A stretch of 64,000 bases of DNA, taken from positions 53,010,001 to 53,074,000 of the forward strand of contig CM059437.1 of NCBI GenBank assembly GCA_030390025.1. Reading direction: 5' to 3'. Both the position numbers and the translations under genes were made by a program. Shown here in pieces: positions 547-56,749 of the stretch; positions within the stretch are counted from its first letter, which is position 1; the number at the start of each line of letters is the position of its first letter. The stretch is from Squalus acanthias. Taxonomy: Eukaryota. Under the pieces are notes generated by a model that was given only the letters and a program-made list of their open reading frames with translations, was not told the DNA's origin and searched no databases.

Positions 547-1069
547 ATGTCTTACTGGTTCCGTGTTATCAGTGTGTTGGTGTTTTGCGTAGTTGGTGAG
601 TATTTTGCTTTCACTGCCTGATTAGATTTCACCTTTAAGATCATGAACTGCAAAACTTCTCACCCCATTTTAATTGCAAAATTATTGCTCTCACTGTCCT
701 GCCTCTTTCCTGACTTTGCTCCTTATTTTCAGATTTAAACGCGCAAGAATCAGCCGCTTTCGATGTCAACTTCTCCGGGAAAGGACATCCAAATAAGTTG
801 TACCCTGTCTGGTGCCAATTTAGGAAGAGATACTGTCTCCTGGTTCCAGCAGATTCCTGGGAACACGCCCCGGCTTCTAGTCTACTATTGGTCGGGAAGC
901 AGCATTTGCAGAGGCCCGGGTATTTCAGAACGTTTCTCCGGCTCCGTATCAGGCAACACGGGAACTTTTACCGTGTCTAATGTGCAATCAGAGGACGCTG
1001 CGGACTATTACTGTGCTATGTGGTCTAGCGGTTTAATCTTCGGTAAAGGGACGAGACTAAGTGTTGGCA
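547..1069 (+). pseudogene. Germline-joined Ig lambda-like (type II) L-VJ pseudogene with no associated C exon
   Basis: Leader exon 547-595 (MSYWFRVISVLVFCVV), donor GTGAGT at 596, acceptor TTTTCAG ending 732, VJ exon 733-1069 with C-W-YYC and FGKGTRL, donor GTAAGT at 1070. The spliced leader reads DLNAQ and is then one base out of frame with NQPLSMSTSPGK (extra G747), ending at TAA 978-980. Confidence 0.88.
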
Positions 1070-3404
1070 GTAAGTAAAATCACTTCATTTGTAGAGTTCT
1101 ATGTTTTGTTTATCTTAAAGCCAAATATTTAAGTTGCTTAATGATTTATTTGGCTCAATTCAATTGCTTTTCAAAGTGAGATTTTCGAAATAATCTGATT
1201 TTTTTACCGAGTCTCCCTTGGCACCTCAGTTGGAAGTAACACATCCTAAATGGGCGATGACGGTCCAGTTTCAGAAGTTTTCACCTGTTGTTACTTCAGG
1301 TTGCATCCCCACTTGGTGCTGAATTGACTTATCCCAAACCAGGATAAGAATTGGACTCCAAATCGCCGAGTTACGCAATGGGAATGATCAATCAATGTTC
1401 GCTTCCTAGTGATTGTGTTCGAAGTTGCGTTGACTGCATCTCAGGTGACAGAGGCGAGCCATGGAATGATGCTCGGTCACAAACCCGACTAACAGCCAGT
1501 GTCTAGGCTCGCATGAGAAGTACGGGAGAGCGACTGGCGCCCGTGCAACCACAGTCCCGTGGACGCCAACGCTTTTAAGAGAAGAATGCAAATTGGAAGG
1601 AATCAAATTCTACAACGTATCTTAAATTCTGTTTCCAATGAAATACCCTGTAATATCTCTAAACGCACTTACTTGAATTAATTACCGTGGTCCTGAACTG
1701 CTTTAGCATTGATTTGATCGGCCTGGCATTAATCATAATAATAAGACTCAAATTTGTTTAATAATACGAGATTTGATTTTATATTTCTGAAATGGTATTC
1801 GTTTTCAACAGCGACAGCGTAGAGGATTAGTAATCGATAGAGAGATATGCTCTCGCAATGTGTTAGATACGTGAGAACAGGTTCGTTCGAGTGCTCTTAC
1901 AGTTTCCCTTAAATAGCCATCACAGTGAAGCTTCCTGCAACGGTTACGACGTGACTAATACATGGAGATTGGAGGCAATCCCTTTTCTACTAATTAAAGT
2001 TATTGCAGCTGTCTTGCCCCTATAGCTCAGTAAAGTAATGGGAATGCTGGAAATTATTCTAGTCCTGCTTTTAGCGACATCATGCGAAATAGTGAACAAT
2101 TTCTAAAGAGAATATACCATCCAGAGGAACTGAATGAGTGAATGAAAGAACGAATAGACGCATTCAGACTGCGGCTATCTCAGAGCGATTCTTTCCGGCG
2201 TTGAACTAGTACCGTGCGATTTCCTGATAGGATCGACTTGTATCTTCATCGTTGATTTGTTTGATGTTTAAAATGAGAGTAACCACTTTAGTTAAAACTG
2301 TTTAATGCTTTTGTTAAAATACGGAAGAATTTCACAGCTTTTCTACAGCGCGTTGATACATTAATATCTCAGAGACCAGTTTTAATCTGGATGCCGTTTT
2401 AAGCCAAACGTGGGCAGTGCACAAAATATAGAGCCTTTCGAACAATAAGGACACGATTTATTGAAGTTGAATTCTGCCATGATTATTATTCTGTGCGTTT
2501 AAACCTTTCATATGTTGGCTTGGATATTTCTCTCCAAACTACCTGATCACTACTTGGTGGTCGGTAGTTACCCGAATAGTGTGACCTGTAGCTTCCTATC
2601 CTTCATCTCAATTCATACGGGTTGATGATCGTTGTCTGCTGAATGTGAATTTTGTAGTTTATTTGCAATTTTTAAAATTGCGATGCTTATGGGGTACGAT
2701 GTGAGATAATAAAACGCGCGCTCACATTCTCAGTGTATGGAATGTGAATAACCTGTAGTGAAATAAATTGTGGAATGAATCACGGGGTAAGCGCAATAAA
2801 AACATGTAAACATGTAAAAACCTATAAGTAAAACTAAAGTGCGTGTTTAATATGAGATCAGCACCAACCCGTATTAAAACAGTTGTAAATCTGCTTGAAG
2901 TATTACAATAGAAAGACTAGATTGTTCTGCCCAAATAACGAAAGGTGCAAGATTCGCAGTTCCACCGCAGAAATCTGAGCTGAGTTATCTGTTTTAATGC
3001 ACAAATTAGTATTTCGAAAAAGCGTATAACGTTAATCTTTTGAAATCCGATAAAAAATTGAGTTTACCCTGCAAGTTTAGTGTTGGCGCCATGCGATTGC
3101 TGGTTGCCAGTGACTAAGGCGCCGAGAATTTAAAGCGCCAAGATGTTTTATCTGCATTACATTGCCTTTGTGCCTGTACATGAAGGACATTATGTCCCTA
3201 TATTCATAAAATACATAAATGATATGTCGGTCTCTCCTCTTGATGACTTAACAGCTGAACCATGTGTACGCATCACAATGGGTGCTGTAAAACGCTGGAT
3301 TGACAATCATCTGAAAATAGGCGGCAGTAATTTCAATACAATTTATAAACAGAAGGCCACTAAACCAGTAAGCTGATACTACTATCAATGTAAGTGCCTT
3401 ATTC

Positions 3405-6873: not shown

Positions 6874-7849
6874 ACAGACCTGTAACTTTTGGTTGAAATC
6901 AAAATTATTTTTTGACACCGAAGCCAAAGGCAGAAAACAGATATTTCCAACAGTATTCTAGTTAATAGCTTTACGGTATGAATGGGCGTCAATCCAGCCT
7001 CTCCATATCAGGTATTGCACGTACCTGTGCATACTTGCACTCAAATTATATATAAATTCGCAAGCGTAAAATCTCAGCAGACAATTGTATATCGAAATAT
7101 CAACTAGCAAAAAACAACGGAAAGTTGCCGACTTCAGATTAACCTATAGAAGAGTTTTCTCTCTGAACTCTAGATGTAATGAAATCACAACCCTCTGTTT
7201 ACAAAAGAAATTCGTTGCACATAGCGAATCTTTCACGGTGAGAAATAGTACCTGTTATCGAAAGTATGTCTTGAGCTCGGTGTTATTTTGGAATATTGGA
7301 CAAGCTCCTGGTGATTATTACCCTCCTCATACGAAATTAACATCTGTTAAAATTTCTCAGTCCACCAGAAATTAAGGGAGGCACCGATATGATTTCTCTC
7401 TCTCGCACTCTCTATCTATCTACCCCTCTCTATTTCTCTTTGTCTTTATCTCTGTCTCTATCTATCTATCTACCTGTCTCTCCTGCTGTCTCTTTGACTC
7501 GCTCTGTTTTTGCATATTTGCTATTTGTCCGACACTTTAAATGATGTTTTTAAACACCGATTTTTACAATCTATGAAATGCTTCTATTGTTCACTATCTC
7601 GGGTCCAAGGGTGAAACTAATCATACAATAAATGTCATTGTTTCCTTTATGGTTTGAAAATGTGATTGTTTTATGTCCCTAATAAACCAATCACCCGTTT
7701 CAAACTTGGTTGTAACCTACAGCACCAATTGTTTCATCTACCTCATATTATATTAATAATCCAAATGAGAATGCATTTGACTATTTGTTGCATAAAAGAA
7801 AAAAAGAAAATTTCCATTGAACAGAATGAATCTAGTAATAGTTACTTAC

Positions 7850-8359
7850 TCAGAACTGTCAGCTTGGTGCCTCCACCGAAGCCGTTGGACCCCCAACCAC
7901 AATGATAATCGGCGTCCTCGGGTTGAACACCGCTGATGGTTAAATATGCGGCGTTGCTGGACGATTGACTCCTTCCAGAGAATCGATCAGGAATCCCGGA
8001 ACCCTTGGTTTCACCGTTAAGATCATGCTAGAGTAGAAATCGAGGAGCATTCCCGGGTTTCTGCTGGTACCATCCTATGTCAGAGTTTCCCAAATTACCC
8101 CCAGACACGCTGCAGCTTATTTTAACCGTTCCTTGCGGCGCGATGGATAACGATTGCGGTTGAGTTAATGTAATCAGCTCGTTTGAACCTATAAAAAGAT
8201 GGAGCAATATTAGAGGCTGGGCTTCATATGATTAATATCGTCACTTTATATCGCTACACAACAAAAGATTATTCACAATGAATCCAACGCAAAGCTTGCT
8301 GAATACTTACAGACTGCGCAAATTATCAGCGTTGTGATGACACGCACCCACACGGACAT
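7850..8359 (-). pseudogene. Germline-joined Ig lambda-like L-VJ pseudogene (partner of C at 4275-4604)
   Basis: Leader 8359-8311 (MSVWVRVITTLIICAV), VJ exon 8188-7850, canonical splice sites. In-frame TAG at 8030-8028 (TAT in the paralog), a 3-nt deletion and YYC>YHC (EDADYHC). CDR3-J reads [17 protein letters not shown]. Confidence 0.93.
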
Positions 8360-9940: not shown

Positions 9941-11239
9941 TGTATCCGTCTAAAAGCACAGGTTTCTTTACATAACGGCTTCATTCAACTCATTCGAGTC
10001 CTCTGGTTACAAAATTTGTCACACAGGTATCTTTGCCTTTATTGGTTGATTCACACATAAGGTGGAAGGTTCCATGCCAATCAACCGGCTGAAAGCAAAA
10101 AAAAGCATTATTCAGTTCACACTGCCGTTTCTTCTTTTTAGCACCTGTTCACATCTTTACAGTTTATTTAAATATTCATATCACAAATATATCTGAATCT
10201 GCAGAGAATTGCACATTGAAAATGCAGATCTGAGGTATAAGTTTGTTGCAGCAGGATTAAAAAACAATGATAATAATGTACACATCCTGGGAATATTTCC
10301 CAGATTTAGACCCTATGGTATTTTGCTTGTACGTCATTTGTTGTACCAGAAATGTAACCTCACACAGACCCGCTTTATATAAAAAGTATCAGCAGCTACA
10401 ACTATGTCCACCGACCATTAATAAAGCAGTACCTCGCATGGGTATTCGCCATTCCAAAATTTATGTGAGGCATGAGAGGTTCATCGGTCTTTCTTTATCA
10501 ACTGTCAATTATCCGATGAACACCTGAAACTACAGTTACCATTGCCGTTCGGTTCACAATTGGATGAGGATGAATTAGAAATTCGCTTTTACCTTTAATT
10601 TATCACAAATTGGGTAACTAATCAATATGGGTAGTACGTTTCAGGATTTCCTTTCAGCCAATTTTACACAGAAAGAATTCAATATCTAAAGCAAAGTGTA
10701 GCCATACAAGTTTAAAAAAAGAGAGGGATGGTAATCGATATGGTAATATCTAGTCTTTAAGATTGCATTCCCCAAACATCACAGACAACAAACAATTCTT
10801 TCGCATATATCTGCAATCAATACAAACCTCACACACATTTTGTTGGGAAATCCCGGTCCAGGGTGCCTAAAAGCGGTTGTCTGATCTTTCCCTTCCATCT
10901 GTTAACTTGGATTTAGATAACACAGAAACAGATACCGATAATCAAATGCTTCAACCGAAAGTTGTGATGGAAAACTTTCACCTGGCACAAAAGGTTGAAA
11001 TGCAGGAAGACAGGTAGAAGTCATTTTGCTTAAGTCAAGCAGAATTGCCCACTCATGTATTATAACATGAAGAAATGTTGTGCTGATTAAATCAAGTGAG
11101 ACTAATCCTCACTGTTACACTGTATGTTCGCTTTTTATCAAATAAAACAGTATATGAAATCGTTTATGCTCTCATCTTTTTTCTTCGTTCTCTGGATATG
11201 GCCATCGCTGGCAAGGCTAGCATTTATAGCCAACCAACA

Positions 11240-21775: not shown

Positions 21776-23189
21776 GAGAATTCTATAAATCTGAAATGAC
21801 ATCATAAAATGCTGGAAATACTCAGCAGATCAGACAGCATCTTGACCTGAGACGTGAACTCTGTTTCTCTCTCCACGGATGTTGCAAGACCTACTGAGTA
21901 TTTGCAGCATTTTCTGTCTTCTCAGTGGTATCCGTTTACCACACGAGGCCTTGCAAGCATCCAGCAGCATGGCCTACACACTTAAAAAACTTTTAACATC
22001 TATTGCAGCAAGCCACTACTTCAGTAAAATCAAAAAACCCCAGTCCAAAAGCATAAATGCAAACATACCTGAAAGATGGGTGTGTCCTTTTAAGAGGTGC
22101 TGACAGCACCACTGTCAGTCTGCTTGCACGCTGCATTTACCTGGTTTGTTTGGAACCCAGCGATGAACTCAGCGCTAGGATCGAAGTTCACTGTGGTGAC
22201 ATTAAGTCGGCATTGCACGCCGACTGATGTCACCACACCGTCATTTTTCTTTGCAGGGTGATAACTCTTAACGGCAGTGCTACCGGGCCCACGAAAATGC
22301 AGGATGCCTTGGGGCTCGCCATCTTCTGGTGGAAGAGTGGCTGCCGCTGCTTTTTCAACATTACGCCACGCTGACAGGTGTCGAAAACCACCCGAATTTC
22401 AATGCTGCAGGTTCTAAACCAAGAAGTATAAATTAGAATATTTAATTCATTGTAAAATAATGTACAGAATGCAAAATAAAAAAGGGAAAGAAAGATGGGA
22501 TTTAGAGAGAGAGAGATAAAAGAGACAGAAAGAAAAAGTATTGGCCTGGAATTTGCAGTGGGTAGTAACAGTGCATTCGCTGTTATTACCCCTTTGAAAC
22601 TGAACGCAAATTCAGGATTTAGTGCCTGCACATCCTAAAGTCGAAATCCTGAAGTTGCGGTCAGTTATTCACTGCTCCGACACTGGCTGTGCTGTGCCCT
22701 CCCGCCCCCACCCCACCCCCCGCCACAACCCTATAGCCAACAATAAGGGAAATCAGTGAAACTGATGAAAACTTGGGCTTTTCAATGCTAATATTAATTC
22801 CATTAAAGTGGGAAACAGGGAAATAGCAGCGATTTTGAACAAATATTTTGTACCGGTCTTCATGGTAGAAGACACTAAAATCATCCCAATAATAATTGAT
22901 AATCAAGGGGCTATTGGGAGGGAGGAACTTCAAACAATGACTATCACTAGAGAAAAAGTACTAGACAAACTAATGGGACCACAGACTGACAAGTCCACTG
23001 ACCTGATGGCCTACATCCTAGGGTCTTAAAAGAAGTGGCTGCAGAGATAGTGGATGCGTTGGTTGCAATCTACTAAAAATCCCTGGATTCTGGAGAGGTC
23101 ATGATGCGGAGATGCCGGTGTTGGACTGGGGTGGACAAAATTGAGAGGTCGCACAACACCAGGTTATAGTCCAACAGTTTTATTTGAAA

Positions 23190-23227
23190 TCACAAGCTTT
23201 CGGAACTATCGCTCCTTCCTCAGGTGA
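23190..23227 (-). ncRNA. Minimal type I hammerhead ribozyme motif
   Basis: Exact mirror of 24803-24840. Confidence 0.8.
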
Positions 23228-24802
23228 AGTAAATTGGATACAGAATCGTCAGAGCATATATAGATGGAAAAAAAAGCATGTGTACTTTACAATTGCAGAC
23301 CAATAAATTAAATCATCCTGACTATCTGCCGAGGTGTGATAAAGTTAATTAAGTCAGCCAGGAAGGTACCACATCAAAAGACATAGCAAGATACAACTGA
23401 GACAATGAGGTGAAGTCGCAGGGGTTCTAACGTGTCAAAAGCTGCCGTCTGTATGTAAAACGAAAAGCTTTAAAAAAAAAAAAAAAAAAATTTACTTTTT
23501 TACTGGGAAAATTTTTACTTTTTTACTGGGAATCACATCTGTGAACAAGCTAACGACGACTCGAGTCCGGATCACGTCATGTATCGTGACATAAACCCAA
23601 GATCCCGATTGAGACCGTCTTCATGAGTGCAGAACTTGGCTATCAGTTTCTGCTCGATGATTTTGCGTTGTCGTGTGTTTCTAAGGTTGCCTTGGAGAAC
23701 GCTTACCCGCAGATCCGAGGCTGAATGTCCTTGACTGCTGAAGTGTTCCCCGACTGGGAGGTAACAATCCTGCCTGGTGATTGTTGCGCGGTGCTCGTTC
23801 ATACGTTGTCTCAGTGTCTGCATGGTCTCGCCGATGTACCATGCCGCGGTGCATTCTTTCCTGCAACGTATGAGGTAGACAACGTTGGCCGAGTCACATG
23901 AGTATGTACCATGTACCTGGTGGGTAGTGTCCTCACGTGTGATGGTGGTATCTGTGTTGATGATCTGGCATGTCTTGCAGAGTTTGCCATGGCAGGGTTG
24001 TGTGGTGTCGTGGTGACCACGACACCACACAACCCTGCCATGGCAAACTCTGCAAGACATGCCAGATCATCAACACAGATACCACCATCACACGTGAGGA
24101 CACTACCCACCAGGTACATGGTACATACTCATGTGACTCGGCCAACGTTGTCTACCTCATACGTTGCAGGAAAGAATGCACCGCGGCATGGTACATCGGC
24201 GAGACCATGCAGACACTGAGACAACGTATGAACGAGCACCGCGCAACAATCGCCAGGCAGGATTGTTACCTCCCAGTCGGGGAACACTTCAGCAGTCAAG
24301 GACATTCAGCCTCGGATCTGCGGGTAAGCGTTCTCCAAGGCAACCTTAGAAACACACGACAACGCAAAATCATCGAGCAGAAACTGATAGCCAAGTTCTG
24401 CACTCATGAAGACGGTCTCAATCGGGATCTTGGGTTTATGTCACGATACATGACGTGATCCGGACTCGAGTCGTCGTTAGCTTGTTCACAGATGTGATTC
24501 CCAGTAAAAAAGTAAAAATTTTCCCAGTAAAAAAGTAAATTTTTTTTTTTTTTTTTTTAAAGCTTTTCGTTTTACATACAGACGGCAGCTTTTGACACGT
24601 TAGAACCCCTGCGACTTCACCTCATTGTCTCAGTTGTATCTTGCTATGTCTTTTGATGTGGTACCTTCCTGGCTGACTTAATTAACTTTATCACACCTCG
24701 GCAGATAGTCAGGATGATTTAATTTATTGGTCTGCAATTGTAAAGTACACATGCTTTTTTTTCCATCTATATATGCTCTGACGATTCTGTATCCAATTTA
24801 CT

Positions 24803-24840
24803 TCACCTGAGGAAGGAGCGATAGTTCCGAAAGCTTGTGA
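24803..24840 (+). ncRNA. Minimal type I hammerhead ribozyme motif
   Basis: UCAC-CUGAGGA-A-GGAGC-GAUA-GUUCC-GAAA-GCU-U-GUGA: stem I UCAC/GUGA, CUGAnGA and GAAA boxes, 5-bp stem II, palindromic AGCU in place of stem III. Confidence 0.8.
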
Positions 24841-25493
24841 TTTCAAATAAAACTGTTGGACTATAACCTGGTGTTGTGCGACCTCTCAATTCTGGAGAGG
24901 TCCCAGCGGATTGGAAAACCGCAAATGTAATGCTTCTATTCAAGAAAGGAGGGAGGCAAAAAACAGGAAACTATAGGCCAGTTAGCCTAACATCTGTCAT
25001 TGGAAAAAAGCTGCAATCCATTATTAAGGAAGTAACAGCAGGACATTTAGAAAATCATAATACAATCAAGCAGAGTCAACATGGTTTATGAAAGGGAAAT
25101 CGTGTTTGACAAATTTACTAGAGTTCTTTGAGGATGTAACGAGCAGCGTGGATAAAGGGGTTCCAGTAGATGTAGTGTATTTGGATTTCCAGAAACCATT
25201 TGATAAAGTGCCACATAAAAGGTTACTGCACAAGATAAGAGCTCACGGGGTTGGGGTAATATATTAGCATGGATAGAGAATTGGCTAACTAACAGAAAAC
25301 AAAGAGTCAGGATAAATGGGTCATTTTCCGGGTGGCAAACTGTAACTAGTGGGGTGCCAGAGGGATCAGTGCTGGAGCCTCAACTATTTACAATCTATAT
25401 TAATGACTTTGAAGAAGGGACCGTGTGTACTGTCAACAAATTTGCTTATGATAGAAAGACAGGTGGGAAAGCAAGTTCTGAGGAGGACACAAA

Positions 25494-31745: not shown

Positions 31746-32423
31746 AAAAGGAGAATTCTGGAGGCACGGCAGCATCTGTCTAAGATATTGGAAGGCCTGC
31801 CAGGCACACTGTCCACTGTGGCAGAGAAGATGGAGCAGTCGAATTCGAACACATGTGGAGCGATGTCGCGGAGCTTATGGGGCAGAAATTCGGGTCTCTA
31901 CGGGTGAGTACGCACTGCGTAATCACCCGTAGGCCCAACGAAAGTGCCGGTTTCTTGCATGCACTGCGCATGCGCGGGAAACTGGCACTTCCGTTCCCCT
32001 GAAGGAAGGGGTTCAGAGGTCGAATGCACATGCCGAAGGGCCAGCGTGTTCGCCTCGCACTTCGGTTTTTTTTACAGGTTCCTCCGTGAGGGTAAGCACG
32101 GAGAAGATGCACATTGAAAAAGGAGGCACAAGGCTTTCTTTTAAAAAGGTAAGTGTTGATTTTATTAAAATTTTAACATTATTTTCACAGATTTTCCTTT
32201 TTTAATTACTTTAAAGAAAGGTAAGTTTAGTTTTAGCCCCGTTAAAAAGTGAAATTTAATTTTTTCAAAAATTTAAATTTTTGTTTAAAATAGTTAATTC
32301 ATGTAATTTATAGTTATTTTAAAAATGTGATGCTTTTTTTAAATTTATTTGTAGTTTTAGGGATGTTTTGGGGCCGATCTGTATTCATAGATTTGACAGG
32401 TCTTTCCTGTCAAATCTATGAAT

Positions 32424-34092
32424 ATGAGAAGTCGCACAACACCAGGTTATACTCCAACAGTTTTATTTGAAATCACAAGCTTTCGGAGTGCTGCTCCTTC
32501 GTCAGGTGAAGTGAAGAGATGTATATAGGCACAGCATATATAGTCAGAGAACACTGCCAGATGATTACAGTTAATCTTTCTAACTGCCCTTTATCACACC
32601 TCGGCAGAGAGATAATCACGGCAATCAAAGGTGTGGATGGTGTCCAAACAGGTCAGTCAGGAAAACATTACATCGAAGACAATGAGGTGGGGTCACAAGG
32701 GGTCAAATGTGGCAGATGCTGGGGTCTGTATGGAAAACAACATTCTTTTTTTGCTGCAAATCACAGCAGGTCCGGCCGCATCTGTGTAGAGAGAACAAGC
32801 CAACGACGACTCGAGTCTGGGTGACTCTATGTCAGGTGGGGTTACATGTAGCGTGACATGAACCCAGGATCCCGGTTGAGGCAGTCCTCATGTGTGCAGA
32901 ACTTGGCTATCAGTTTCTGCTCGATGATTTTGCGTTGTCGTGTGTCTCGAAGGCCGCCTTGTAGAACGCTTACCCGAAGATCGGCGGCTGAATGTCCTTG
33001 ACTGCTGAAGTGTTCCCCGACTGGGAGGGAATACTCCTGCCTGGCGATTGTTGCGCGGTGTCTGTTCATACGTTGTTGCAGTGTCTGCATGGTCTCGCCG
33101 ATGTACCATGCTCCGGGGCATCCTTTCCTGCAATGTATGAGGGAGACAACGTTGGCCGAGTCACATGAGTTTGTTCCATGTACCTGGTGGGTGGTGTCCT
33201 CACATGTGATGATGGTATCTGTGTTGAGGATCTGGCATGTCTTGCAGAGGTTGCCGTGGCAGGGTTGTGTGGTGTCGTGGTCGCTGTTCTCCTGAAAGAT
33301 GGGTAATTTGCTGTGAACGATGGTCTGTTTGAGGTTAGGCGGCTGTTTGAAGGCGAGTAGTGGAGGCGTGGGGATGGCCTTAGCGAGGTGTTCGTCATCA
33401 TCGATGACATGCTGAAGGCTGCGAAGAACATAGCGTAGTTTCTCCGCTCCACTGAAGTACTGGAAGACGTAGGGTACTCTGTTGGTTGTGTCCCGTGCAA
33501 CAATCGCCAGGCAGGAGTGTTCCCTCCCAGTTGGGGAACACTTCAGCAGTCAAGGACATTCAGCCTCCGATCTTCGGGTAAGCGTTCTCCAAGGCGGCCT
33601 TCGATAACATCAACAAGTTACATCCCACCATCAAACTCACCATGGACTACTCCTCAGAATTGGTTTCATTCTTGGACACACGAATCTGCATCAAAGATGG
33701 ACACTTCAGCACTTCACTCTACCGCAAGCCCACGGACAACGTCACGATGCTCCAATTCTCCAGCTTCCAGCCTAACCACGTTAAAGAAGCCATCCCCTAT
33801 GGACAACCCTGCGAATACACAGGATCTGCTCAGACGAGGAGGAACGTGATGGACACCTACAGACGCTGAAAGACGTCCTCGTAAGAATGGGATATGAAGC
33901 TCGACTCGTCAATCGACAGTTCCGACGGGCCACGGCAAAAAATCACATAGACCTCCTCAGAAGACGAACACGGGACACAACCAACAGAGTACCCTACGTC
34001 GTCCAGTACTTCCCCAGAGCGGAGAAACTACGCCATGTTCTTCGCAGCCTTCAACATGTCATCGATGACGATGAACACCTCGCTAAGGCCAC
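32424..34092. mobile_element. Rearranged Penelope-like element (family A)
   Basis: - strand terminal repeat and GIY-YIG region at 32424-33496, then a + strand GIY-YIG piece (33497-33604) and RT C-terminus (33605-34092; VSFLDTRI..LYRKPTD). Confidence 0.88.
32473..32509 (-). ncRNA. Minimal hammerhead ribozyme motif (family A)
   Basis: UCAC-CUGACGA-A-GGAG-CAGCA-CUCC-GAAA-GCU-U-GUGA. Confidence 0.78.
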
Positions 34093-39779: not shown

Positions 39780-40927
39780 TCACCTCGTGAAGGTGTTAGC
39801 TACTAGCAGTTCCTGAGCAGCCTTACTTCCGGCAGCACTTGGATCCTCCCCATCAGGCCTGGCCACAGGCACATTGGCATCGTCCATGACCTCCATTTCA
39901 GTAGGGAGCTCCTCTGCAGGGTTAAGGGTCAGTCCTTCCCGCAGGGCAAAGTTATGCAAAGCACAACAGGCCACCACAATCCTTGTCACTTTCAGAGGAG
40001 AATACTGCAAGGTCCCCCCTGACCTGTCCAGGCAGGGGAAGCATGATTTCAGAGCCCCAATTGTCCTCTCCACCACTTGCCGTGTGGACACGTGTGCCTG
40101 GTTGTATCTCTCTGAGCCTCATTATTGGTCTTGCGGTAATGAGTCATCAGCCATGGTCTTAGCGGGTAGCCCTTGTCGCCAAATATCCATGCGGATCCTG
40201 GAAGCAATGTGCTGAGGGTGCCATATAAGTCCGAGTTACGGAGGACGAAGGAGTCATGAGCACTTCCCTGGTGATCTGCATTCACGGTTTGAATCCTGAC
40301 GTGCGCATCACAGACCATCATGACATTCAATGAATGAAACCCCTTCCTGTTGATGTATGTCACAGGTGCATCCAGTGATGCCTTCAATGCAACATGGGTT
40401 CCATTGACGGCCCCAATCACTTTGGGGAATCCAGCAATGCTATAAAATGCAAGGGCCATCCCCTTTTGATGGTGAGTGGACAAGTCAAAGTCTATGAACT
40501 CTGAAGCCCTACGGAAAATGGCATCTGTGACCTGGTGAATGCAGGCCAAGGCAGCACTCTGGGAGATGTTGGAAATGTCACCGGTGCTTGCCTGAAATGA
40601 CACACTTGCAAAGAAGTTCAATGCTGTGGTTACCTTCATGATCACTGACAAGGCAGTGCGGATCTTCGAGCATGTTTGAAGGTCCTCCTTTAACATGTCA
40701 CATAGTCGGCTGATTGCCTCTTTACTGAAGCGCAGCCTCCTCACACACAACTCCTCCGACAGCATCTCAAATGACAGCCTCTCCCTGTACACTCTCTGGG
40801 GTGGGTAGTAGTTCCTCCTGATCAGGAGATGGTGATGGTTCCTCAGTCTTCTTTGTTGTTCTCTGGTGTTTCCAGTTCTCTGATGCACAATCGCACCGAG
40901 GATCAGGGCAACATCGTCAAAGGGCAT
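39780..40927 (-). pseudogene. Harbinger DDE transposase (HARBI1-like), inactivated
   Basis: FPKVIGAVNGTHV (first catalytic D replaced by N), YINRKGFHSLNV, GSAHDS, GDKGYP; frameshift near 40100; then RQVVERTIGALKSCFPCLD. Confidence 0.92.
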
Positions 40928-41749
40928 GTTTCTGCCTCACAGGCTTCCTCTTTAAACAGATGAAGTACTTGTAAGGAAAAAATGGAAAGAGTTGTAAAAG
41001 TAATTTTAATAAAGTGAGTGGCAAGAAAATCACGTCGGGCTATGGTGGGAAACGTGCGGTATCGGAATGGGAAAACGTCATACGCGCCTGATGAATATCA
41101 CGGCCCGAGATGATTTTCTAAGAGTTTAACATTTTCACAAAGTCATACATACAATTTTTAAAGGGCATGAAAAAGTTAACATGTAACTAATTGATACTTT
41201 CTGGCATAATTTTTAAAAACTTCAGTAAATGTTAAATCATTCTTTTTTAAACAGTCATTTTCATATTTAAGAAAATGAAATCTAATTCAATAGACCTTGC
41301 ACACAGCAAGAGCTGCTCTTTATAACTACACTACTCAAAACAAGATTCAAAACCGTTTTTAACAAATTAAAGTTGATAAAAACTTACCTCAGGCTTTCTA
41401 CAAAGAACTTTGCTCACTTTCACAATTAAAAATGTTCCGTTTCCAAGCCCACTGCTGAAAGAGTTCTTCTTCCTGCAGCTTCTTCCGGTAGAATGCATGC
41501 TGTATGCCTGCTTTTACTAGGCGCAGCTGTTTCGGACGTACCTGCACTGAAGCATTTGAGAAAAAATCGGAACTTTTATCCGGTAGCGCTGCCTATACTG
41601 CGCATGCGTTTGATCTCTCAAGCCCTTTCTTGACAGATCGGAAATGCCGGTTTCCAGCGCATGCGCTGTGCATGCCTGAAACCGGCATTTCCGATGTCCC
41701 AACGGGTGAGTACAAAGCGCGTACCCGTAGGGATCGGAATATCCGGGCC

Positions 41750-52198: not shown

Positions 52199-53138
52199 AC
52201 AGACCTGTAACGTTTGGTTGAAATCAAAATTATTTTGTGACACCGAAGCCAAAGGCAGAAAACAGATGTTTCCAACAGTATTCTACTTAATAGCTTTACG
52301 GTATGAATGGGCATCAATCCAGCCTCTCCATATCAGGTATTGCATGTACCTGTGCATACTTGCACTCAAATTATATATAAATTCGCAACCGTAAAATCTC
52401 AGCAGACAATTGTATATCGAAATATCAACTAGTATAAAAACAACGGAAAGTTGCCGACTTCAGATTAACGTATAGAAGAGTTTTCTCTCTGAACTCTAGA
52501 TTTAATGAAATCACAACCCTCTGTTTACAAAAGAAATGGTACCTGTTATCGAAAGTATGTCTTGAGCTCGGTGTTATTTTGGGATATTGGAAAAGCTCCT
52601 GGTGATTATTACCCTCCTCATACGAAATTAACATCTGCTAAAATTTCTCAGTGCACAAGAAATTAAGGGAGGCACCGATATGCTTTTTCTCTCTCGCACT
52701 CTATCTATCTACCACTCTCTATTTCTCTTTGTCTTTATCTCTGTCTCTATTTATTTATCTACCTATCTCTCCGGCTGTCTCTTTGACTCGCTCTGTTTTT
52801 GCATATTTGCTATTAGTGCGACACTTTAAATGATGTTTTTAAACACCGATTTTTACAATATATGAAGTGCTTCTATTGTTCACTATCTCGGCTCCAAGGG
52901 TGAAACTAATCATACAATAAATGTCATTGTTTCCTTTATGGTTTGAAAATGTGATTGTTTTATGTCCCTAATAAACCAATCACCCGTTTCAACCTTGGTT
53001 GTAACCTACAGCGCCAATTGTTTCATCTACCTCATATTATATTAATAATCCAAATGAGTATGCATTTGACTATTTGTTGCATAAAAGAAAAAAAGAATAT
53101 TTCCATTGAACAGAATGAATCTAGTAAAAGTTACTTAC

Positions 53139-53480
53139 TCAGAACAGTCAGCTTGGTGCCTCCACCGAAGCCGTTAGTCCCCCAACCACAATAATAATCG
53201 GCGTCGTCCTCGGGTTGAACACCGCTGATGGTTAAATATGCGGCGTTGGTTGACGATTGACTCCTTCCAGAGAATCGATCAGGAATCCCGGAACCCTTAA
53301 CCTCACGGCTAAGATCATGATAGAGTAGAAATCGAGGAGCATTCCCGGGTTTCTGCTGGTACCATCCTACGTCACTGTTTCCCAAATTGCCCCCAGACAC
53401 GGTGCAGCTTATTTTCACCGTTCCTTGCGGCGCGATGGATAACGATTGCGGTTGCGTTAATGTAATCAGTGCGTTTGAAC
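53139..53480 (-). CDS. Germline-joined V-J exon of an intact Ig lambda-like light chain (exon 2)
   Basis: 342 nt, phase 1 at both ends. [25 protein letters not shown]...WYQQKPG...[20 protein letters not shown]. Donor GTAAGT; no RSS. Confidence 0.96.
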
Positions 53481-53602
53481 CTATAAAAAGATGGAGCAAT
53501 ATTAGAGGCTGGGCTTCATATGATTAATATCGTCACTTTATATCGCTACACAACAAAAGATTATTCACAATGAATCCAACGAAAAGCTTGCTGAATACTT
53601 AC

Positions 53603-53651
53603 AGACTGCGCAAATTATCAGCGTTGTGATGACACGCACCCACTCGGACAT
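53603..53651 (-). CDS. Leader exon of the intact light-chain gene (exon 1)
   Basis: ATG 53651, MSEWVRVITTLIICAV plus T, donor GTAAGT; splices in frame to the VJ exon. Confidence 0.92.
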
Positions 53652-55240: not shown

Positions 55241-56384
55241 GTATCCGTCTAAAAGCACAGGTTTCTTTACATAACGGCTTCATTCAACTCATTCGAGTCC
55301 CCTGGTTACAACATTTGTCACACAAGTATCTTTGCCTTTATTGCTTGATTCACACATAAGGCGGAAGGTTCCATGCCAATCAACCGGCTGAAAGCAAAAA
55401 AAAAGCATTATTCAGTTCACACTGCCGTTTCTTCTTATTAGCAACTGTTCACATCTTTACAGTTTATTTAAATATTCATATCACAAATATATCTGAATCT
55501 GCGGAGAATTGCACATTGAAAATGCAGATCTGAGGTATACGTTTGTTGCACCAGGATTAAAAAACAATTATAATAATGTACACATGCTGGGAATATTTCC
55601 CAGATTTAGACCCTATGGTATTTTGCTTGTACTTCATTTGTTGTACCAGAAATGTAACCCGCTTTATACAAAAAGTATCAGCAGCTACAACTATGTCCAC
55701 CGACCATTAATAAAGCAGTACCTCGCATGGGTATTCTCCATTCCAAACTTTATGTGAGGAATGAGAGATTCATAGGTCTTTCTTTATCACTTGTCAATTA
55801 TCCGATGAACACCTGAAACTACAGTTACCATTGCCGTTCGGTTCACAATTGGATGAGGATGAATTAGAAATTCGCTTTTACCTTTAATTTATCATAAATT
55901 GGGTAACTAATCAATATGGGTAGTACGTTTCAGGATTTCCTTTCAGCCAATTTTACACAGAAATAATTCAATATCTAAAGCAAAGTGTAGCCATATAAGT
56001 TTAAAAAAAGAGAGCGATGGTAATCGATATTGTAATATCTAGTCTTAAGATTGCATTCCCCAAACATCATAGACAACAAACAATTCTTTCGCCTATATCT
56101 GGAATCAATACAAACCTCACACAGATTGTGTTGGGAAATCCCGGTCCAGGGTGCCTAAAAGCGGTTGTCTGATCTTTCCCTTCCATCTGTTAACTTGGAT
56201 TTAGATAACACAGAAACAGATACCGATAATCAAATGCTTCAACCGAAAGTTGTGATGGAAAACTTTCACCTGGCACAAAAGGTTGAAATGCAGGAAGACA
56301 GGTAGAAGTCATTTTGCTTAAGTCAAGCAGAATTGGCCACTCATGTATTATAACATGAAGAAATGTTGTGCTGATTAAATCAAG

Positions 56385-56600
56385 ATGCGGAGATGCCGGC
56401 GTTGGACTGGGGTGGACAAAAATGAGAAGTCGCACAACACCAGGTTATAGTCCAACAGATTTATTTAAAATTACAAGCTATCGGAGCTGTCGCCCCTTCC
56501 TCAGGTAACTTTACCTGAGGAAGGGGCGACAGCTCCGAAAGCTTGTAATTTTAAATAAATCTGTTGCACTATAACCTGGTGTTGTGGGACTTCCCATTTT
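56385..56600. mobile_element. 216-bp non-coding hairpin Penelope (family A) derivative, present only in copy 2
   Basis: 13-bp TSD TGATTAAATCAAG (56372-56384 / 56601-56613); empty site at 11084-11096. It has the same GATGCGGAGATGCCGG tail as 23101 followed by inverted arms of about 91 bp. Confidence 0.92.
56511..56548 (+). ncRNA. Minimal hammerhead ribozyme motif (family A)
   Basis: UUAC-CUGAGGA-A-GGGGC-GACA-GCUCC-GAAA-GCU-U-GUAA. The mirror copy at 56471-56508(-) has GAAA changed to GAUA. Confidence 0.8.
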
Positions 56601-56749
56601 TGATTAAATCAAGTGAGACTGATCCTCACTGTTACACTGTATGTTCGCTTTTTATCAAATAAAACAGTATATGAATTTGTTTCTGCTCTCATCTTTTTTC
56701 TTCGTTTTCTGGATATGGCCATCGCTGGCAAGGCTAGCATTTATTGCCA

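Follow-up and report, generated by a model that had tools for sequence, protein, structure and literature searches.

A 216-bp hammerhead-bearing hairpin in a Squalus acanthias light-chain cluster is one of thousands of short, separately made insertions of a Penelope-like element

The window, meaning the whole stretch of 64,000 nucleotides from Squalus acanthias that was analysed (contig CM059437.1), is a cluster of immunoglobulin light-chain genes in which V and J are joined. Three of these are located at 739-1077 (+), 7842-8230 (-) and 53131-53523 (-), with the first on the opposite strand. The paralogous gene near 7842-8230 (-) contains an in-frame stop. The leader ATG of the intact gene lies near 53651 on the minus strand, 2.7 kb from a 216-bp insertion. 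The window also contains two other insertions of a Penelope-like element (PLE), and a 295-aa frame at 40049-40936 (-) that resembles, by its motif, a Harbinger/HARBI1-type DDE nuclease. The features are as follows.

11084..11096 (+): empty paralogous target site with one TGATTAAATCAAG, from sequence comparison
23089..24903 (no strand assigned): 1.75-kb palindromic insertion of a sister subfamily, with tail, arms, 13-14-bp duplication and GIY-YIG-like coding stretch
32420..34091 (no strand assigned): third PLE insertion of the window, asymmetric and rearranged, from sequence comparison
53131..53651 (-): intact germline-joined V-J immunoglobulin light-chain gene (V-set E 2.6e-18), context only
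56372..56384 (+): target-site duplication, left copy, 13 bp, present as a single copy in five paralogs
56385..56416 (-): PLE tail, 32 nt, found on just one of the arms; the start codon of the ORF marks its end in full-length copies
56417..56508 (-): tail-side arm (pLTR / predicted 5′-UTR segment), from inverted-repeat and sequence comparison
56471..56508 (-): minimal type I hammerhead motif whose core is disrupted, reading GATA instead of GAAA, from sequence
56505..56514 (+): junction GTAA-CT-TTAC, equal to the parent sense sequence on the strand of the tail-less arm, with 4-nt microhomology
56511..56548 (+): putative intact minimal type I hammerhead motif, from sequence, fold and the features in the text available from PMC4209133
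56511..56600 (+): tail-less arm, stopping about 32-34 nt short of the tail end, from sequence comparison
56601..56613 (+): target-site duplication, right copy, from sequence comparison

The insert occupies 56385-56600 (216 bp) and is bounded by two copies of TGATTAAATCAAG, a sequence with three matches within the window and 0 in 100 shuffles. A search with the empty site yielded five paralogous cluster sites on the same contig, all of which (5/5) were empty, with 81-96% flank likeness; their left flanks were 96, 96, 93, 84 and 84% alike to that of the filled unit. Because five paralogs are empty, the filled state is derived and the event was an insertion; precise excision at a paralog is ruled out. 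The two arms differ at 4/92 positions, which agrees with the divergence of roughly 4% seen against the nearest paralogs, and the four differences are private to this copy. The preliminary description had proposed a 216-bp insertion with a long target-site duplication (TSD), placed 2.7 kb from an intact gene and later than the cluster duplication, and with 11084-11096 as its empty site, and all of this was confirmed. The target site itself (56373-56383, also 11085-11095) is nearly palindromic, reading TGATT-A-AATCA. Elsewhere in the genome, recurring CR1-like sites were hit by several hairpin copies, for example TTGAATATACTC in L058, L075 and L087.

The arms form an inverted repeat of 92 nt each (56417-56508 versus 56511-56602), which are 96% complementary and separated by a 2-nt CT loop. 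In the centre, GTAA-CT-TTAC, hammerhead stem I has the TTAC as its 5′ strand, so that the fold-back point indeed lies at the 5′ edge of this stem, as described before. In the tail-less arm the motif consists of stem I TTAC/GTAA, CTGAGGA, an extra A, stem II GGGGC/GCTCC, GAAA and GCT, with T as H17. Judged by the features in the available text of PMC4209133, namely a CUGANGA and GAAA core, an extra base after A9, G10.1-C11.1, a palindromic stem III and NUH, it is a minimal type I hammerhead motif. The short stem I, the palindromic 15.2-16.2 positions and the high variability are likewise shared with the PLE hammerheads of that text. The tail arm has lost A14 and reads GATA in place of GAAA, a private change. 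Thus two back-to-back motifs are present, as had been claimed, but only that of the tail-less arm has an intact core. Rfam hammerhead models gave 0 matches in the window at gathering score, and in folding tests neither the hammerhead (z-score -0.88) nor the 5′ segment (z-score -0.05) was significant. A 3′ splice site at the junction was considered and rejected, since the AG is not conserved among copies (CAG, TAG, TTG, CTG, CAA).

The arms match the ends of the two other PLE insertions of the window, both of which contain GIY-YIG-like coding sequence, and the plan of the 216-bp insert is that of the 1.75-kb palindrome, as had been recognized. Long genomic copies contain an 814-aa frame with a reverse transcriptase (RT), a C-x4-C-x2-C linker and a GIY-YIG-like end. 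RVT_1 was found above cut-off on the long copy L094 (E 1e-8). For GIY-YIG, only the copy in the window gave a score, just below the cut-off (E 2.5e-4, 21.7 against 22.6 bits); the Pfam model was not called on L094 or L095, where the motif is visible and the preceding C-x4-C-x2-C could be read by eye. Among 30 loci found with the 5′ part of the ORF, six carried hammerhead and tail directly before the ATG, with the hammerhead 397 nt before the query and the tail ending ...CCGCATC ATG, and three more carried the tail alone. The same segment is present before and after the ORF, so that the pLTR is in partial tandem. Judged by its sequence, the parent is an abundant endonuclease-positive PLE, with RT, GIY-YIG, pLTR tandem, inverted copy with tail, and TSD. 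Its linker suggests that it is of Neptune type; the passage of PMC8557442 available on this criterion names Neptune and Nematis. Each arm is the pLTR end of the element together with its predicted 5′ UTR, with the tail ending at the ATG, and the 216-bp locus is an ordinary dead PLE insertion. Close relatives of the hammerhead-tail segment (L150:975-1500) were observed in sequence runs X1-X4 from two organisms of other studies.

A 36-mer from one arm had 9,012 exact genomic matches. By hand count, 27 head-to-head pairs were present among the first 100 of these, with spacings from 29 to 4,392 nt, so that hairpin lengths form a continuum. Tail-anchored hairpins numbered 574 at spacings of 58-88, 899 at 89-119, 2,630 at 120-150, 695 at 151-181 and 325 at 182-212; these figures depend on exact anchor matches, score two-tailed copies double and contain some asymmetric cases. 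They amount to 5,123 short hairpins, 2,630 of which fold near the hammerhead 5′ edge. The density peaks at ~130 per nt at spacings of 129-138, versus 10-40 on the flanks (scaled from the first 100 matches per bin), and the 216-bp copy lies at the mode with a spacing of 134. A duplication of 10-19 bp was found in 83 of 90 hairpins, and in 60 it measured 12-13 bp. A plot of fold-back positions had been suggested as a check for a sharp peak: a peak at the hammerhead 5′ edge is indeed obtained, but it is broad, about 25 nt in summed length. The tail anchor was observed on both arms in a few hairpins (L117/L118, G000:C1:32122923-32123165; and G000:C2:5890563-5890783). At the centre of another PLE palindrome (L093, G000:C1:23693100-23697900) a near-intact CR1-like LINE with an 881-aa frame was located.

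Assignment to MITEs was rejected. These have a fixed length, terminal inverted repeats at both ends and a DNA-transposon parent, whereas here the tail is unpaired, lengths are continuous and the parent is a retroelement. The earlier view of a recurrent retrotransposition product that resembles a MITE only in looks is borne out by the PLE parent, the tail, the TSD and the thousands of hairpins with a fold-back peak at the hammerhead. It is concluded that the 216-bp insert is one of thousands of hairpins made separately and not a self-copying MITE.

To locate the inner ends, 101 arms were taken from the first matches of the arm 36-mer, chosen regardless of fold-back. Ten of the 101 ended at -10..-14 from the hammerhead core, a 6.1-fold excess relative to background (p 8e-6, or about 2e-4 when 25 windows are allowed for); of 12 short non-inverted arms, 6 also ended there. 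In the end mapping of hairpins, where each locus was left out of its own comparison library, arm ends peaked at -4, -7, -10 and -13. Most subfamilies have an Inr-like TCA at -13 and a TATA-like stretch about 30 nt further upstream, and the end position at -13 had been predicted ahead of the end-mapping data. TATA and Inr-like motifs are also described for rotifer pLTRs in the text available from PMC3846280. We infer that the pile-up 10-14 nt upstream of the core corresponds to the transcription start predicted from these motifs. By a weighted estimate about 28% of the hairpin arms stop within the hammerhead. Ends also gather in a second cluster at -45..-55, a little past the TATA-like motif, to which 8 of 101 arms contribute, mostly from three symmetric hairpins (loci L046/L047, L107, L108, L051 and L312). 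The RNA data comprised 11 runs, all assembled contigs and one of them on record as RNA; four were compared, and no start or end was called.

In the parents, GTAACTTTAC stands shortly before the hammerhead core and forms a 4-nt self-complement, and this built-in self-complement explains that the same junction recurs. The exact junction of the 216-bp copy was found at 32 sites belonging to several subfamilies, of which 31 were scored: L276 was left out as its tail is missing and its orientation not assignable. L118 and L117 are one site, so that L118 was not counted. At other junctions (L120, L122, L123, L178 and L275) locally repeated or templated extra bases were seen.

The origin of the arms could be followed by their stem-II types. 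Among 47 hairpins with recurrent types on both arms, 36 were of the same type and 11 were mixed, whereas random pairing within class would give 16.8 same-type and about 30 mixed hairpins. Under a looser rule 17 of 69 hairpins were mixed (71 two-arm hairpins, two of them unparsed), and mixed arms were also present in 3 of the 31 exact-junction copies. A single TSD was found in 17 of the 18 mixed candidates checked. No mixed hairpin (0 cases) had arms differing in downstream class; the differences are confined to the hammerhead. Sister masters active together would account for this, as would a template switch or a conversion restricted to that module. The mixed-arm hairpins L065, L071, L073, L077-L079, L229 and L267 could mean that hammerhead modules are shuffled between subfamilies. 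The two arms of the 216-bp copy are of one type, so that the evidence for two templates comes from other hairpins. The loop of the 31 copies reads CT in 19, including the 216-bp copy, and AG in 12; in L020 and L028 both orientations are kept end to end. Both the mixed arms and the orientation of the loop speak for two priming events in at least some copies.

The preferred reading, with a probability of roughly 0.65, is that the insert consists of two head-to-head PLE ends, each reaching from hammerhead to start codon, for which both nicks of a staggered cut primed reverse transcription on element RNA, giving short cDNAs whose synthesis is predicted to end by run-off at the 5′ end of the RNA and which would be joined via the GTAA/TTAC microhomology. 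The parent has the RT and GIY-YIG-like domain, with hammerhead and tail directly before its ATG, and the 12-13-bp duplication that flanks most copies would result from the staggered cut. From the two fixed outer ends and the initiation sites in the available text of PMC11167929, one cDNA would start at the start codon, where the tail ends, and the other about 32 nt upstream. The inner ends 10-14 nt upstream of the core would represent run-off at the transcription start, with TCA at -13. In about a quarter of the scored hairpins the arms are of two different template types. The cDNA ends would then be trimmed to microhomology and joined by host repair. Extra locally repeated or templated bases at junctions are expected of microhomology-mediated repair.

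Self-priming is considered an unlikely alternative for the insert. Here, one cDNA would stop at the hammerhead or close to the 5′ end of the RNA, fold on GTAA/TTAC and copy itself back to the second nick, a route proposed for inverted PLE junctions in PMC3846280, as far as its available text goes. The parent does contain the 4-bp self-complement, and a shared source or snap-back explains many of the same-type hairpins (36/47). Moreover, near-symmetric long palindromes with 1-8-nt loops exist (L101, L108, L096 and the 1.75-kb copy), and such near-perfect structures fit snap-back better than two priming events. However, snap-back of one cDNA is impossible as the source of hairpins with different stem-II types on the two arms (11/47, and 3/31 with the exact junction). 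The parent sense strand reads CT, and therefore a tail-primed cDNA that folds back leaves only AG on the tail strand, yet CT is found in the majority, and at many junctions the arm ends are unequal or extra bases are present. Snap-back, hammerhead-limited template switching or conversion may contribute alongside the two priming events of the preferred reading.

That the ribozyme sets the length, either by stalling RT at its fold or by self-cleavage that makes the RNA 5′ end, is improbable. The spacing peak brackets the hammerhead 5′ edge, and stem I covaries among 178 arms, which are related and not independent (TAC/GTA 128, CAC/GTG 15, wobble 13). Minimal hammerheads are also thought to act as dimers and could hold two RNAs together (PMC4209133, in the text available). 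Cleavage after H17, however, would give a spacing of about 64 nt, where no peak is seen: the bin holds 574 hairpins versus 2,630 at the mode, with 6 of the first 100 at 64, and cleavage-defined ends were rejected on this ground. RT stalling would be expected at entry into the fold, yet the ends peak 6-10 nt beyond stem I, near the TATA/Inr-like site. In the available text of PMC11167929, hammerhead mutants of the Anolis element left insertion in vitro unchanged. The proposal in the preliminary description of RT stalling with a structure-defined snap-back fares weakly at best, given also the breadth of the peak (about 25 nt) and the arms of some hairpins, which derive from two templates.

A self-propagating non-autonomous family (MITE-, SINE- or retrozyme-like), also raised earlier, is most improbable and largely refuted by the arm comparison of 31 copies: although the 40 candidates scored, out of 438, all (40/40) match nearly the whole 216 bp at 90-100% and the exact junction is common to 32 sites, these sites make up only a minor fraction of the hairpins, which exceed 5,000 and vary continuously in length, the two arms mirror each other at the free N7 base in 31 of 32 sites across three states (15, 9 and 7), at least 8 stem-II types occur among the 31 oriented copies, some with mirrored insertions, the arm differences of the 216-bp copy are private, and the shared arm-asymmetric changes that had been proposed as a check were limited, among the 31 copies, to one CpG change in 2.

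The architecture is the one described for endonuclease-positive PLEs, for which insertions with inverted pLTR and tail are known (PMC3846280, PMC8557442, in the text available from both), and the 216-bp insert belongs to this known class. The shared pattern consists of an inverted copy that is truncated at its 5′ end and placed head-to-head, a one-sided tail of 30-40 nt, a TSD and a palindrome or overlap at the junction. Different from what these texts describe, the shark insert is without any ORF and present in thousands of copies, and for at least some of these copies the mixed arms and the loop orientation suggest two primings where the 2013 paper (PMC3846280) proposes self-priming. Pairs of hammerheads on opposite strands, 100-700 bp apart, were noted in 2014 in the available text of PMC4209133, which gives no explanation for them.

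In Anolis carolinensis, the Poseidon element PAc cuts one strand of its target and then the other, extends both and is predicted to act as a dimer, according to the text covered of PMC11167929. In PAc and, by prediction, in the shark element, RT initiates internally at two sites on either side of the tail, and insertion does not need the hammerhead. The ORF of PAc begins within the hammerhead, with RT initiation 111-118 nt into the ORF, whereas the shark tail ends at the ATG; the C-x4-C-x2-C linker of the shark parent suggests Neptune. The text covered of PMC11167929 does not tie both-strand extension to inverted repeats.

Non-LTR retrozymes (bioRxiv 10.64898/2026.07.22.740005, as far as its available text goes) are likewise non-coding, hammerhead-bearing and derived from a PLE pLTR, but they form head-to-tail tandem arrays, whereas the shark insert is a head-to-head pair made anew per insertion. 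Assignment to retrozymes was rejected, since a head-to-head pair between TSDs is found here instead of head-to-tail tandem units. In L1 twin priming, both target nicks prime cDNA and the products join by microhomology. L1 primes two parts of one RNA, which gives an inversion, whereas the shark primers would copy the same segment, which gives a palindrome, sometimes from two RNA types.

The way in which PLEs make inverted repeats is described as undefined in the available text of PMC8557442, and in the limited literature covered no paper describing two-template priming for these repeats was found. A more general reading, to which we give even odds, is that PLEs insert as a complex of two enzymes and two RNAs with reverse transcription from both nicks at once, that their inverted repeats would be two independent cDNAs joined end to end, and that the commonest product would be a strong-stop-like cDNA pair reaching from start codon to transcription start; mixed-arm hairpins would record this process, which would replace self-priming. 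For repeat annotators the hairpins hold a warning, as they can be misfiled as MITEs. They link the 2024 in vitro result, in which both strands are extended and two start sites are used (PMC11167929, text covered), to a genomic product, and as the arms of the short hairpins, thousands in number, are marked by subfamily, a single assembly allows both two-template priming and the site of the RNA start to be tested.
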